The notes under the pieces: generated by a model
What the model saw: the letters and a program-made list of their open reading frames with translations, nothing else
Told to the model about the DNA's origin: nothing
Database searches by the model: none
Assembly: GCA_017960525.1 (NCBI GenBank)
Contig: JAGCZA010000049.1
Coordinates: 8,911 to 72,910 of the forward strand
Length of the DNA: 64,000 bases
Source of the DNA: Prevotella sp.
Lineage (GTDB): Bacteria > Bacteroidota > Bacteroidia > Bacteroidales > Bacteroidaceae
Direction of reading: 5' to 3'
Position numbers and translations under genes: made by a program
Shown: in pieces, positions 4,869 through 49,727 of the stretch
How positions within the stretch are numbered: the stretch's first letter is position 1
Layout of the letters: every line of letters begins with the position of its first letter

Positions 4869-5825
4869 ATGGGATTATTTGATTTTTTTAGTAAGAAGAA
4901 AAAGCAGGAAACACTTGACAAAGGCCTTGAGAAGACAAAAACTTCTGTGTTTGACAAGTTGGCCCGTGCCATTGCCGGCAAGTCAAAAGTGGACGACGAT
5001 GTGCTGGACAATTTAGAAGAGGTGCTCATCACCAGCGATGTGGGCGTGGAGACCACGTTGAAGATTATCAAGCGCATTGAAGAGCGTGTGGCACGCGACA
5101 AGTATGTTTCCACCTCTGAACTGAACGTGATACTGAGGGACGAGATTGCTGCCCTGCTGGCAGAGACTGGCAACGGCGATAGTGACGACTGGGATTTGCC
5201 TGTCGACCATCGTCCTTACGTCATCCTTGTGGTTGGCGTTAATGGCGTGGGCAAGACCACTACCATTGGCAAACTGGCTTGGCAGTTCAAGCAGGCCGGC
5301 AAGAAGGTCTATCTGGGCGCTGCCGATACGTTCCGTGCCGCTGCCGTTGAGCAGTTGTGCATTTGGGGCGAAAGGGTGGGGGTACCCGTGGTGAAGCAGC
5401 AGATGGGTAGCGACCCCGCCTCTGTGGCCTTCGACACGTTGCAGAGCGCCAAGGCCAATGGTGCCGACGTGGTGCTGATAGACACGGCTGGCCGCCTACA
5501 CAATAAAGTTGGCCTGATGAACGAGTTGAAGAAAATCAAGGACGTGATGAAGAAAGTGCTGCCGCAGGCCCCCGACGAGGTGTTGTTGGTGCTCGACGGC
5601 TCCACCGGCCAGAACGCTTTCGAGCAGGCCAAGCAGTTCGCCGCCGTCACCCAGATTACCAGCCTGGCCATCACCAAACTCGACGGCACGGCCAAGGGTG
5701 GCGTGGTCATCGGCATCAGCGACCAGTTGCAAGTGCCTGTGAAGTACATAGGACTGGGCGAAGGGATGGAAGACCTCCAACTATTCGACCGAAAAGATTT
5801 CGTCGACAGCCTCTTTAAAAATTAG
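4869..5825 (+). CDS. ftsY: SRP receptor FtsY
   Basis: GVNGVGKTTT, DTFRAAA, DTAGR and TKLDGTAKGG; start moved to MGLFDFF. Confidence 0.96.
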   Translation: MGLFDFFSKKKKQETLDKGLEKTKTSVFDKLARAIAGKSKVDDDVLDNLEEVLITSDVGVETTLKIIKRIEERVARDKYVSTSELNVILRDEIAALLAETGNGDSDDWDLPVDHRPYVILVVGVNGVGKTTTIGKLAWQFKQAGKKVYLGAADTFRAAAVEQLCIWGERVGVPVVKQQMGSDPASVAFDTLQSAKANGADVVLIDTAGRLHNKVGLMNELKKIKDVMKKVLPQAPDEVLLVLDGSTGQNAFEQAKQFAAVTQITSLAITKLDGTAKGGVVIGISDQLQVPVKYIGLGEGMEDLQLFDRKDFVDSLFKN

Positions 5826-5903
5826 GACGAACCAATTGCCCAAAGAGGACGAACTAATTAGGCAAAGAGGACGAACCAATTACCTAAAGAGGACGAACCA
5901 ATT
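5825..5903 (+). repeat. Four-unit tandem array, 22-bp period, core GGACGAACYAATT
   Basis: Cores at 5825, 5847, 5869 and 5891; variable bases between cores. Confidence 0.9.
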
Positions 5904-5945: not shown

Positions 5946-7286
5946 ATGATGACCATTGATTTCATTTCCTTAGGATGCTCGAAGAATCTCGTGGATAGCG
6001 AGATGCTGATGGGGCTGTTCGAGGCTGCGGGCTATCGTGTGACGCACGACAGTCCTGACCCGCAGGGTGAAGTGGTGGTTATCAATACGTGCGGTTTTAT
6101 TGCCGATGCAAAGGAGGAAAGCATCAACACCATCTTGGAACAGGTGCAACGAAAGGCAGAGGGGTCTGTGAAGCGCATCTATGTGATGGGCTGTCTCTCA
6201 GAGCGTTACCTTGCTGATTTGGAGGCAGAGATTCCTGAGGTCGATGGTTGGTTCGGGAAGTTCAACTACAAGGAACTCCTCTCTGTCATTGGCCATTCTC
6301 CATTGACCATTGACCATTCGGAAGTCGCAGCCAAAAATGTTCAATGTTCAATGGTCAATGGTAAATGGCAAAGACATTTGACCACACCTTCCCACTACGC
6401 CTATATCAAAATCAGCGAGGGTTGCGACCGCACGTGTGCCTATTGTGCCATCCCCCTCATAACGGGTCGTCATCAGAGCCGGCCTATGGAGGAGATTCTG
6501 GAGGAAGTGCGCCAATTGGTGAAGCGAGGCGTTGTGGAGTTTCAGTTGATTGCCCAAGAACTGACCTACTATGGTACAGACATTTACGGACGTCAGCGCA
6601 TAGCCGAACTGGTGGAGCAAATGGCCGACATTCAGGGTGTGCGCTGGATTCGCCTGCATTATGCTTACCCCACCCATTTCCCTTGGGAACTGGCCAGGGT
6701 GATGCGCGAAAAGAAAAACGTGTGCCGCTATCTCGACGTGGCCCTTCAGCACATCAGCGACAACGTGCTCGCACGTATGCGCCGCAATGTTAGCAAGCAG
6801 GAAACCATCGAGTTTATCGAAAGGCTGCGCCGCGAAGTGCCAGGTCTGCATCTGCGCACCACGCTGATGGTGGGTTTCCCAGGCGAGACGGAAGCAGATT
6901 TCCAAGAACTCATCGAGTTTACCAAATGGGCCCGTTTCGAGCGGATGGGCGCCTTTGCCTATAGTGAGGAGGAGGGCACCTGGTCGGCTTTGCATTATCA
7001 GGATGATGTACCTGAAGATGTGAAACAAAGGCGACTGGACAAACTGATGCGTGTGCAACAGAACATCAGCGCCGAGTTGGAGGCACAGAAGATTGGCACC
7101 GTCCTACCCGTTGTCGTAGACCGATTGGAAGGGCCTTACTATGTTGGACGCTCAGAATTTTGTTCGCCAGAAGTTGACCCGGAAGTACTGATTGCCGCCG
7201 ACAAGGCCGAAATGACGATTGGTGAGATGTACGACGTGAAAATAACTGGCTCTGAGGAGTTCGATGTCTACGGTGAGGTCGTCTAA
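5946..7286 (+). CDS. rimO: Ribosomal protein S12 methylthiotransferase
   Basis: SLGCSKNLVDSE, NTCGFI, radical SAM CDRTCAYC, C-terminal TRAM domain. Confidence 0.93.
   Translation: MMTIDFISLGCSKNLVDSEMLMGLFEAAGYRVTHDSPDPQGEVVVINTCGFIADAKEESINTILEQVQRKAEGSVKRIYVMGCLSERYLADLEAEIPEVDGWFGKFNYKELLSVIGHSPLTIDHSEVAAKNVQCSMVNGKWQRHLTTPSHYAYIKISEGCDRTCAYCAIPLITGRHQSRPMEEILEEVRQLVKRGVVEFQLIAQELTYYGTDIYGRQRIAELVEQMADIQGVRWIRLHYAYPTHFPWELARVMREKKNVCRYLDVALQHISDNVLARMRRNVSKQETIEFIERLRREVPGLHLRTTLMVGFPGETEADFQELIEFTKWARFERMGAFAYSEEEGTWSALHYQDDVPEDVKQRRLDKLMRVQQNISAELEAQKIGTVLPVVVDRLEGPYYVGRSEFCSPEVDPEVLIAADKAEMTIGEMYDVKITGSEEFDVYGEVV
6287..6370. repeat. Inverted heptamer-repeat element in-frame in rimO
   Basis: (CATTGAC-like)x5, AAGTCGCAGCCAAA, (AATGGTC-like)x5; 84 nt. 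Confidence 0.85.
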
Positions 7287-17444: not shown

Positions 17445-17522
17445 GGACGAACCAGACTCTGAGTTTGGACGAACCAAAGTAGGAGTTTGGACGAACCAAA
17501 CTCCTGGTTTGGACGAACCAAA
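17445..17522 (+). repeat. Four-unit 22-bp array, core TTTGGACGAACCAAA
   Basis: GGACG at 17445, 17467, 17489 and 17511. Confidence 0.92.
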
Positions 17523-17600
17523 CTTTTGGGCTTAAAAGAGGGGGTAGAAAAGCAGGGGGCGGCTTTTTGCTTTTTTTAGCGTGCTTCCGTTGCGAAAACA

Positions 17601-19770: not shown

Positions 19771-21909
19771 ATGAAACTACACCTGACGAGAAACGCTATA
19801 GCCGTCTGTGCCTTTCTGATGGCCAGTACCACCGCTGGGGCGCAGGGCGGAGTGACTAATACCTCGAAATGCGAAAACGCCCGTATGACCAGCGTGCCCC
19901 TGACTGCCGTGCAATGGACGGGTGGCTTCTGGGGCGAGCGCTTCGACGTGTTGAGCAAGACGAGCGTGCAAAGTATGTGGGAGACGTGGCAGAGTGCACA
20001 GGGCAAAGGCTTCAACAACTTCCTCGTGGCCGCTGGCGAGAAGCAGGGCGAGCACCACGGCCCTCCCTTTCACGACGGCGATATGTACAAATGGCTAGAG
20101 GCCGTCGCCTCGGTCTATGCCATCACCCGCGACCCCCAGTTGGAGCAGATTATGGACCGCTTCATTGGACTGGTGCAGAAGGCGCAACGCGCTGACGGAT
20201 ATATCCATACGCCTGTGATTATCAAGGAACGGTTAAGAGTTGAGAGTTCAGAGTTGAGAGACAATAGTTCCTCGTCAGAGAACAACGACAATAATACTAA
20301 AGTCTCTCAACCCGTCGGCACCGCCGTTGGCACCAAAAACGATGCTGCCTTTGAGAACCGCCTGAACTTCGAGACCTACAACTTGGGGCATCTGATGATG
20401 GCGGGCATTATTCACAAACGGGCAACGGGGAAGACCACGCTCTTCGATTGTGGCGTGAAGGCCGCTGACTTCCTCTACGACTTCTGCCAGCGGGCGCCGG
20501 AAGAACTGGCCGGAAACGCCATCTGCCCCTCGCACTATATGGGCGTGGCCGAACTTTACCGTGAGACGGGCAACAAGAAATACCTCGACCTCCTGCGGCA
20601 GTTTATCGACATCCGTGGGATGGTGAAAGACGGCACCGACGACAACCAAGACCGTATACCCTTCCGCCAGCAGTACCAGGCAATGGGCCACGCTGTCCGC
20701 GCCAACTATCTCTATGCAGGCGTGGCCGACCTCTACTTGGAGAGCGGCGAGGAGCAGTTGATGAAGAACCTCACCAGCATCTGGCAGGACATCACCCAGC
20801 GGAAGATGTATATCAACGGCGCTTGCGGTGCCCTCTACGACGGCACATCGCCTGATGGCACCAACTACAAGCCCGACAGCATCCAGAAAGTGCACCAGAG
20901 TTACGGGCGCCCCTACCAGTTGCCACAAAGCACGGCTCACAACGAGACCTGCGCCAACATCGGCAATATGCTGTTCAACTGGCGGATGCTCCTTGCTACA
21001 GCCGATGCAAAGTATATGGACTTGGTAGAGAACTGCCTGTACAACAGCATCTTGCCCGGCATTTCGCTCAACGGCGAGAGTTACTTCTACACCAATCCCT
21101 TGCGACTGAGCGATGAGTTGCCCTACACCCTGCGCTGGCCGAAGGAGCGCAAGAAGTACATCTCGTGCTTCTGCTGTCCGCCAAACACACTGCGCACCCT
21201 CTGCGAGGCCCAGGACTACGCCTATACGCTCACCCGTCCGAACAGTACTGGCACCATCTACGTGAACCTCTTTGGCACCAGCCAGTTAAAAGGGAAATTG
21301 GATGATGTGGGCGACATTGTGCTCACCCAGCAGACTGACTATCCCTGGAGCGGTCACGTCACCCTGACCATCGAGAAACTGAAGGCTCCACGCCACCACA
21401 AGTTTGCCATCGGCCTGCGCTGTCCTGAGTGGGCAGCCGGTGCTTCCTATACCGTCAACGGCCAACCGCAGTCCATCAATAAGGAGAAGGGCTACTTGGT
21501 GGTAAACCGCAAATGGAAGCAGGGCGACGTCATCAGTTTCGACATCCCGATGGAAACGCGCATTGTGGAGGCTAATCCGCTCGTTGAAGAGAGTAGGGGA
21601 CAAGTGGCTGTGATGCGAGGCCCCATCCTCTATTGTCTGGAAAGCAATGACCTCAACGGCACCGACATCGACAACGTCACGATTCCCGTCACAGCACAGT
21701 TCCGGCCAGTCGAGGTGAACATCGGTGGCAGCCGGATGATGGCCCTCGAAACCGAAGCATACGTGCGGGGTGAGGATGACTGGAAGGGCACGCTCTACCG
21801 CAATGTCGCCACGAAGAAGGCAAAGAAGACCGTGCGCCTCGTTCCCTATTATGCCTGGGGAAACCGAGGCAAGAGCGAGATGACCGTGTGGATGCCTGCC
21901 TCTTACTGA
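19771..21909 (+). CDS. GH127 beta-L-arabinofuranosidase-like glycoside hydrolase
   Basis: DMYKWLEA, GHAVRA, HNETCANIG and CFCCPPN; signal peptide. Confidence 0.85.
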   Translation: MKLHLTRNAIAVCAFLMASTTAGAQGGVTNTSKCENARMTSVPLTAVQWTGGFWGERFDVLSKTSVQSMWETWQSAQGKGFNNFLVAAGEKQGEHHGPPFHDGDMYKWLEAVASVYAITRDPQLEQIMDRFIGLVQKAQRADGYIHTPVIIKERLRVESSELRDNSSSSENNDNNTKVSQPVGTAVGTKNDAAFENRLNFETYNLGHLMMAGIIHKRATGKTTLFDCGVKAADFLYDFCQRAPEELAGNAICPSHYMGVAELYRETGNKKYLDLLRQFIDIRGMVKDGTDDNQDRIPFRQQYQAMGHAVRANYLYAGVADLYLESGEEQLMKNLTSIWQDITQRKMYINGACGALYDGTSPDGTNYKPDSIQKVHQSYGRPYQLPQSTAHNETCANIGNMLFNWRMLLATADAKYMDLVENCLYNSILPGISLNGESYFYTNPLRLSDELPYTLRWPKERKKYISCFCCPPNTLRTLCEAQDYAYTLTRPNSTGTIYVNLFGTSQLKGKLDDVGDIVLTQQTDYPWSGHVTLTIEKLKAPRHHKFAIGLRCPEWAAGASYTVNGQPQSINKEKGYLVVNRKWKQGDVISFDIPMETRIVEANPLVEESRGQVAVMRGPILYCLESNDLNGTDIDNVTIPVTAQFRPVEVNIGGSRMMALETEAYVRGEDDWKGTLYRNVATKKAKKTVRLVPYYAWGNRGKSEMTVWMPASY
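20237..20313. repeat. Heptamer element with inverted ends, in-frame in GH127
   Basis: GAGTTGA GAGTTCA GAGTTGA GAGAC ... ACTAAAGTCTCTCAACCC. Confidence 0.75.
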
Positions 21910-49546: not shown

Positions 49547-49627
49547 TTTGGTTCGTCCAAACTCCCACTTTGGTTCGTCCAAACTCCTGTTTTGGTTCGT
49601 CCAAACTCCTACTTTGGTTCGTCCAAA
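49547..49627 (-). repeat. Four-unit 22-bp array, inverted relative to 17445
   Basis: TTTGGTTCGTCCAAA at 49547, 49569, 49591 and 49613. Confidence 0.93.
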
Positions 49628-49727
49628 CTTATAAAGCGCTACGGCCCTTTTCAGCAACCGCCCCGTCAATTTTACAAAAGTGCAAAAACTTGCAAAGAAA
49701 GTATAAGCATATTTCCCAAAAAACAAC

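Follow-up and report, generated by a model that had tools for sequence, protein, structure and literature searches.

A heptamer hairpin within the rimO gene

The window, i.e., the whole 64,000-nt stretch of Prevotella sp. DNA that was analyzed, includes a rimO gene with an 84-nt element at positions 6287-6370. The element consists of two inverted arrays of CATTGAC/AATGGTC heptamers around a 17-nt spacer (Table 1), and both arrays were detected by TRF. The best ungapped pairing of the arms, the inverted repeat 6280-6318 / 6336-6374, covers 39 nt on each side with 79% complementarity; the arms also pair over 19 nt at 95%. The predicted minimum free energy of the RNA hairpin is -39.2 kcal/mol (z -6.7), and none of 200 shuffled sequences was equally stable. 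The 84 nt amount to 28 codons of the open reading frame 5946-7286, with the translation ...VIGHSPLTIDHSEVAAKNVQCSMVNGKW..., and SPLTIDHSEVAAK is an example of the junction peptides expected from the translated element. An in-frame 84-nt inverted heptamer hairpin in RimO had been reported in a preliminary description of this DNA, and its coordinates, pairing, RNA fold and 28-codon length were confirmed. The spacer includes a heptamer one base away from GCGCAGC, a sequence referred to below as the head. In the orthologous allele L043 the spacer, CAGAACGCGCAGCCAAT, has the same length. Reading the fifth left-arm unit (CATTCGG) as CATT followed by loop was abandoned; CATTCAG stands at that place in orthologous alleles.

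Table 1. Features of the rimO locus and of three gene-bearing cassettes. Positions without a prefix are those of the window.
Feature	Position	Strand	Description
rimO ORF	5946..7286	+	Intact host gene, 446 aa; Pfam domains, 4jc0 match, invariant cluster cysteines
Outer palindrome extension	6280-6286	+	TCTCTGT, paired with 6371-6374
Left arm	6287-6318	+	CATTGGC CATTCTC CATTGAC CATTGAC CATT; 4.5 CATTGAC-type units, TGA-bearing strand, read as IGHSPLTIDH
Spacer (loop)	6319-6335	+	17 nt, CGGAAGTCGCAGCCAAA; TCGCAGC at 6325-6331
Right arm	6336-6370	+	AATGTTC AATGTTC AATGGTC AATGGTA AATGGCA; five AATGGTC-type units, stop-free strand, read as NVQCSMVNGKW
Codon TCT where consensus is TGA	6297..6299	+	In frame; TCA in relatives and paralogues (unit CATTCAC)
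Codon TCG where consensus is TGA	6318..6320	+	In frame; TCA in orthologous alleles L043 and L045 (unit CATTCAG)
PF05635 cassette	C26:9716-10030		CATTGAC/AATGGTC arms
PF05635 cassette	C77:7903		AAATGAG arms and inner stem of gene-less hairpins
PF05635 cassette	C60:10421		GTTGAGA arms and GACTTTA

The host protein has the Pfam domains UPF0004 (residues 5-104), Radical_SAM (154-325) and TRAM_2 (383-446), matches the T. maritima RimO 4jc0 with an E value of 1.7e-87, and its cluster cysteines are invariant across 52 homologues. The insert corresponds to residues 115-142 and is located between the UPF0004 and Radical_SAM domains, so the Pfam matches agree with the position first assigned to it. In an AlphaFold2 model built with 52 homologues, residues 119-146 have pLDDT values below 50 and lack secondary structure, and this stretch is flanked by a helix (108-117) and a strand (151-157). 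According to this model, the 28-residue insert peptide is probably disordered and placed in a tolerant inter-domain linker. Conservation of the frame suggests that the element is translated as a passenger peptide. The neighborhood of rimO holds a repeat of another kind: a 22-nt unit with the core GGACGAACCAA is tandemly repeated about 3.6 times at 5824-5903, 17445-17524 and 49547-49629, one of these arrays lying directly between ftsY and rimO, and the genome has 217 period-22 TRF rows.

With consensus units throughout the left arm, TGA codons would be in frame at 6297 and 6318, as had been calculated before, while the out-of-frame TGA triplets at 6304-6306 and 6311-6313 are intact. The accompanying claim that only the stop-generating units were mutated stood in part. 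Both in-frame units are indeed changed, but the out-of-frame unit 1 (CATTGGC) lost its TGA as well (now TGG), and the right arm deviates from AATGGTC in four of its five units. Moreover, any open ORF must show such a stop pattern, which in a single copy is therefore statistically uninformative; the genome-wide contrasts described below provide the weight. Alleles L043 and L045 have TCA in both in-frame units (CATTCAC and CATTCAG), and TCA is also found at the first in-frame position in the paralogous hairpins C137 and C32. Since TCA is common to orthologous and paralogous copies, the TGA-to-TCA changes predate this rimO copy; judging from the aligned copies, the TCT and TCG of the window are synonymous drift from inherited TCA.

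The RimO linker in related proteins

RimO from 29 genome orthologues and 120 close database homologues was compared at the site of the element. The preliminary description had proposed an insertion, and the corresponding empty site was found: most of the 29 orthologues have, in place of the insert peptide, a repeat-free linker of 12 residues resembling DLGKADVPACDG. The finding that the preliminary description had named as a refutation, the same peptide in orthologues whose lineages lack the repeat, was not made. In the window the linker has 28 residues, 48 nt more in net terms, and the insert stands in place of the native 12 residues rather than being added to them. RimO proteins 75-87% identical to that of the window carry the same element at the same site. 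As far as these homologues tell, the insert is specific to a Prevotella sub-lineage but old. It was also present in independent assemblies (ENA and Logan).

Four rimO alleles with an element of the same family were compared at the DNA level, and in all of them the site and frame are identical to those of the window. One of them, L043, is organized as a perfect 21-nt (three-unit) super-repeat, (CATTGAC CATTCAC CATTGAC) x3, L046 has a right arm of 13 units, and L044, which encodes the closest protein (87%), has a decayed copy that is 45 nt shorter. The length of the compared stretch, from FGKFNY to HYAY, ranges from 108 to 195 nt, and every allele is in frame and stop-free. Between the window and L045, 13 of 30 codons in the element region differ, 10 of them non-synonymously; the insert peptide evolves almost freely, nearly neutrally.

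The linker is extremely variable among the 120 database homologues. Several of them have the same heptamer family at the site, e.g., DIDHSPLTIDHSPLTIDHSPLTIDHSERAANNAQCSMFNGQW, others have different heptamer families (ELEMRNEKYDY...NHIYHLSPFISH; IENGRLKIED...SSIFNLQ; ...SSLFTLHSSL), and short linkers without a recognizable repeat are also present. On a tree of 116 RimO proteins, built without the linker, at least 26 changes of linker state were counted. The sister allele of the window, 92% identical outside the linker, has an AAATGAG-family hairpin at the same site. In another pair of sisters, P0004 and P0005, the flanks are identical and both arms have changed complementarily, from CCATTGA/TCAATGG to AGATTGA/TCAATCT. 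By eye, filled and empty alleles showed no direct repeat indicative of a target-site duplication at the borders of the rimO or the C32 element. A G/C-rich palindrome, read as TPSPSLSREGG...PTGRGWE, occupies the linker in 44 of 116 homologues (P0007 and others), and similar hairpins, CCCCACCCCC...GGGGGTGGGG, are found in the genome of the window at C33:27146 and C71:7973.

Heptamer arrays and hairpins across the genome

The assembly comprises 3.97 Mb with 53% G+C. After merging overlaps and requiring at least 2.8 copies, 526 period-7 TRF rows yielded 405 heptamer arrays. Gene calls for the genome-wide counts were our own ORF-based calls (90% coding); they place 198 arrays within ORFs and 95 at the edges of ORFs, and the other 112 are intergenic. 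The CATTGAC-type heptamer occurs at many unrelated loci (66 pattern matches, 34 TRF arrays), which share the CATTCAC variant and an (A/T)AATGG junction and in some cases the GCGCAGC head. The sequence GCGNAGC, a stable DNA mini-hairpin motif (PMC13037366), is located within 30 nt of the ends of 56 of the 405 arrays, against an expectation of 17 +/- 4. Inverted heads enclose the AATAGTG array at G000 C6:18849-18876 (GCGCAGC...array...GCTGCGC). Among the 151 genomes of the genus, CATTGAC arrays have a patchy distribution, being present in 25, and AAATGAG arrays are present in 34; 19 of the 25 have both.

About 40 heptamer hairpins were located in the genome by a seed-and-extend scan, and 21 of them are spanned by open frames of 277-1448 aa. 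Pfam confirmed the identity of six hosts: RimO, BipA, RelA/SpoT, IspG, an FGGY kinase and a PIF1-like helicase. Each hairpin family is read in one frame and yields one conserved peptide, LEMRNEKYD...NHISHFSSFIS in the AAATGAG family and LRVQSSELRDFS...KSLNSQLSTLN in the GTTGAGA family. All three hairpins of the CCATTGA family read IDHSPLTIDH...NGQW, with the same frame in C137, C32 and the orthologous rimO alleles. None of the insert peptides matched a Pfam or NCBIfam family at E values up to 10. Two further ORFs deserve mention. In the window, a 712-aa ORF includes an in-frame GTTGAGA array (20232-20260; G000 C126:29142-29170), one unit of which is GTTCAGA. At G000 C77 38084-42052, repeats have contributed three parts of a 1322-aa ORF that by appearance resembles PurL. 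A hairpin of the GTTGAGA type lies close to its N-terminus, residues 605-633 correspond to an AAATGAG hairpin, and the C-terminal tail NGQWSMDNGQL comes from a CCATTGA-type array.

The in-frame stops were then considered over all coding copies. Among ORF-internal arrays, the sense strand is the stop-free strand in 133 and the stop-bearing strand in 38. A count of 47 lost in-frame stops out of 47 was discarded as circular, since arrays were counted as inside only if the ORF was open. The stop-bearing arrays in ORFs retain 112 of 129 out-of-frame consensus stops, whereas the in-frame ones are replaced, chiefly by TCA (16) or TTA (11); TGG and CGA, which transitions would produce, do not occur among the replacements. 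The replacement codons are family-specific, which points to descent rather than repeated mutation. The arms of the AAATGAG family, aligned on the inner stem AAATATGAT, provide an internal control. Unit -3 has kept its TGA in each of the 20 antisense and five non-coding arms, whereas none of the 10 sense arms has it (nine TTA, one GGA), a contrast with an exact probability of about 5e-9 by our own arithmetic. The stop-removing change is uncompensated in the partner arm and thus indicates selection on the reading frame, not on the stem. Stop avoidance over coding copies, for which the preliminary description had suggested a statistical test, is therefore borne out by the retained out-of-frame stops and by the 10/10 versus 0/25 contrast. 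Its wider proposal, that a repeat-to-protein insertion process is filtered by selection, gains support from the 21 in-frame hairpins, the single frame per family and the confinement of stop loss to sense arms.

One member of the rimO hairpin family departs from the pattern. In the hairpin at C32:3054-3154, within a gene for a FAD-dependent protein, the loop is native sequence (VVGVKA versus VVGVEA in orthologues, with alignable DNA), and the arms replace the two turns that flank it. Because the loop is native, a simple model in which a hairpin drops in fails at this locus. An attempt to derive the rimO loop from the C32 loop by removal of 11 nt was dropped for the same reason, the C32 loop being sequence of the gene itself. 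The G001 orthologue reads IDHDH at the arm site with its length unchanged. Other C32 orthologues (L051-L077) have, depending on the species, other repeats in the same two turns, among them a CTCTCAA array in G024, a G/C-rich palindrome in G005 and other inserts in G020 and G013.

Gene-bearing cassettes with the same arms

Profile searches of this genome identified 11 PF05635 matches and three strong PF13366 matches. Nine of the PF05635 genes, which encode small four-helix-bundle proteins, lie between inverted tandem arrays, every gene having a unit of its own (three are listed in Table 1). The proteins behind different arms are 15-64% identical. The CATTGAC-armed cassette is found at one orthologous intergenic site in three genomes (this one, G013 and G123), with proteins 77-87% identical; given this single site, the pairing of CATTGAC arms with PF05635 is probably vertically inherited and the three occurrences are not independent evidence. 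Its gene has a TTG start inside the last unit and ends in ...GTCGCGGAGAAATAATGGTCAATGG. The loop and junction of the rimO element, GAAGTCGCAGCCAAAAATGTTCAATG, resemble the start and end of this gene joined together, although the likeness covers about 20 nt at about 70% and could be due to chance. In the surrounding region, C26:9676-10100, the TGA stop of the upstream gene is supplied by the first heptamer and the next gene begins just past the last unit. Around two PF13366 (GxxExxY/PDDEXK_3) genes, C46:30442-30768 and C21:14281-14601, the inverted arrays have 9-nt units (ACGGATTAA; GCAGCGGAC), which together with 497 period-9 TRF rows suggests a parallel 9-mer class.

Origin of the rimO insert

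The 84 nt in rimO probably represent a dispersed foldback repeat in a version that lacks a gene, translated as a disordered passenger peptide in the linker. In this account, CCATTGA/TCAATGG arrays around a short spacer with a GCGCAGC-like head would form the dispersed repeat, and the rimO family would descend from a cassette with the same arms around a PF05635 gene, such as that at C26:9716-10030. The copies would spread by a DNA-level mechanism. Selection would only filter for integrity of the reading frame and for tolerant positions, and the peptide would not be selected for any function. The arms grow and shrink between alleles with the frame kept, and only arrangements free of in-frame stops persist. 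Mobility is deduced from dispersal only, as neither a transposase nor a target-site duplication nor a presence/absence polymorphism came to light. A Y1_Tnp protein was considered as the driver; this genome has one weak, degenerate PF01797 match (32 bits) with no arrays beside it. Within the genus, PF01797 is present in 72 of 151 genomes, and its long class (265-300 aa) co-occurs with CATTGAC arrays in nine of 14 genomes, compared with 16 of 137 others, a comparison uncorrected for shared phylogeny.

A local origin is unlikely. According to this explanation, replication slippage and quasi-palindrome template switching would have built the hairpin in place from seeds that arose in the linker by chance, and nothing would have moved from one locus to another. 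The differences in arm length between alleles, the joint change of units in both arms of P0004/P0005, the native loop of C32, the G001 orthologue with its IDHDH at unchanged length and the lack of a visible target-site duplication are all compatible with such a process, which would, nevertheless, have to produce the same heptamer at many unrelated loci, together with the CATTCAC variant, the (A/T)AATGG junction and sometimes the head. Nor would it account for the same arms around a gene at C26, or for the patchy occurrence of arrays of one family in the genus.

It is also rather improbable that the hairpin or the peptide was selected as a functional element, for instance as an RNase III site, as a ribosome pause tuning rimO expression or domain-wise folding, or as a useful flexible linker. 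The stem is strong, its arms co-vary in P0004 versus P0005, the linker site is occupied in many lineages, and in 23S rRNA RNase III cleaves the IVS stems of the PF05635 cassettes related to it (PMC4990558). Against a function stand the near neutrality of the peptide and the stop-removing changes left uncompensated in the other arm. Furthermore, the closest allele dispenses with 45 nt and many orthologues are insert-free, unrelated families substitute for one another at the RimO linker, and the same elements are found in many unrelated enzymes. That the element escapes translation, through RNA processing and rejoining, ribosome hopping, or because rimO is a pseudogene or the hairpin an assembly artifact, is hardly credible, since nothing beyond the strength of the hairpin speaks for it and every allele is in frame and stop-free over its whole range of lengths, stop loss is restricted to sense arms, independent assemblies carry the element and the catalytic cysteines are conserved.

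Building on the gene-less foldback copy as the preferred reading, a broader proposal can be made tentatively, and we consider it possible but somewhat doubtful. Prevotella may harbor a selfish system with autonomous and non-autonomous members, in which PF05635 proteins would recognize their own 7-nt arrays, and perhaps PF13366 proteins their own 9-nt arrays, while gene-less foldbacks would spread in trans, colonizing tolerant loops and swapping places in them. The rimO insert would then be a derivative of the CATTGAC-armed cassette. If this were true, the linker peptides of housekeeping proteins would be continually rewritten. More generally, the elements make the role of PF05635 "four helix bundle" genes, which are very common, accessible to experiment.

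Comparison with known systems

The title of a 2002 paper, as cited in PMC10969869, calls protein-coding palindromes "unique but recurrent", and so far they have been treated as a peculiarity of Rickettsia. Here, the genome of a free-living member of the Bacteroidota, of gut or rumen type, shows the same outcome on a similar scale, and the design of its repeats is different and more dynamic. In a full-text search of the literature, no paper on such elements in Prevotella or Bacteroidales came up, and the heptamer-hairpin class of repeats, which is large and has in-frame copies in dozens of genes with housekeeping roles, is apparently undescribed. For annotation and alignment, the elements explain much of the length variation of the RimO linker in close Prevotella homologues as well as two loops of the C32 FAD protein. 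With regard to protein evolution, they represent natural maps of insertion tolerance and a steady supply of new loop sequence.

The nearest parallel is the Rickettsia palindromic elements (RPE), for which NCBIfam holds models. RPE are short palindromic repeats found in frame in many unrelated housekeeping genes (Ogata et al. 2000, 2002, as summarized in PMC10969869). The Prevotella elements resemble them as in-frame palindromes in unrelated housekeeping genes, with one frame and one conserved peptide per family, and as copies that reside in tolerant regions and decay over time, the rimO insert being in a low-pLDDT inter-domain linker. They differ in being unrelated in sequence, in their host phylum, Bacteroidota, and in their shorter length (about 70-130 nt). 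In addition, their arms are tandem heptamer arrays that slip between alleles with the frame always kept, and they comprise many unit families with gene-bearing counterparts (PF05635 between the same arms).

The IVSs of 23S rRNA in Coxiella and Leptospira have inverted terminal repeats that form a long stem around an S23p (PF05635) ORF (PMC4990558). Stem-forming inverted arms are a common feature, and one of the nine gene-plus-arms cassettes has the rimO heptamer. However, the rimO copy has a 17-nt loop instead of the PF05635 ORF, is located within a protein-coding gene and, as its frame suggests, would be read through rather than excised. No report of heptamer-array arms in classical IVSs was found in the literature searched.

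Dispersed 7-nt tandem repeats are known as heptanucleotide long SSRs and, in cyanobacteria, as STRR (Mrazek 2007, as cited in PMC4679880). The Prevotella arrays are likewise dispersed 7-nt tandem repeats, many of them stop-bearing on one strand, and the stops govern the choice of strand within ORFs. Unlike these repeats, they are paired as hairpins, often with a GCGNAGC head, are frequent inside genes and are tied to small flanked genes. STRR occurs inside the cyanobacterial RNase P RNA.

Finally, with MITE and REP/REPIN-RAYT the hairpins share the nature of non-autonomous foldback derivatives of a gene-bearing element, present in many copies per genome, and the rimO hairpin, like a MITE, has terminal inverted repeats and carries no gene. 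In contrast to MITE, it shows no target-site duplication by eye, and where a transposase would be expected, its gene-bearing counterparts encode a PF05635 or PF13366 protein; in contrast to REP/REPIN-RAYT, the sole Y1_Tnp match of this genome is degenerate and not flanked by arrays. Overall, the rimO element is best regarded as a heptamer foldback of RPE-like type that has no gene, is translated, and is tolerated because its site is a disordered linker.
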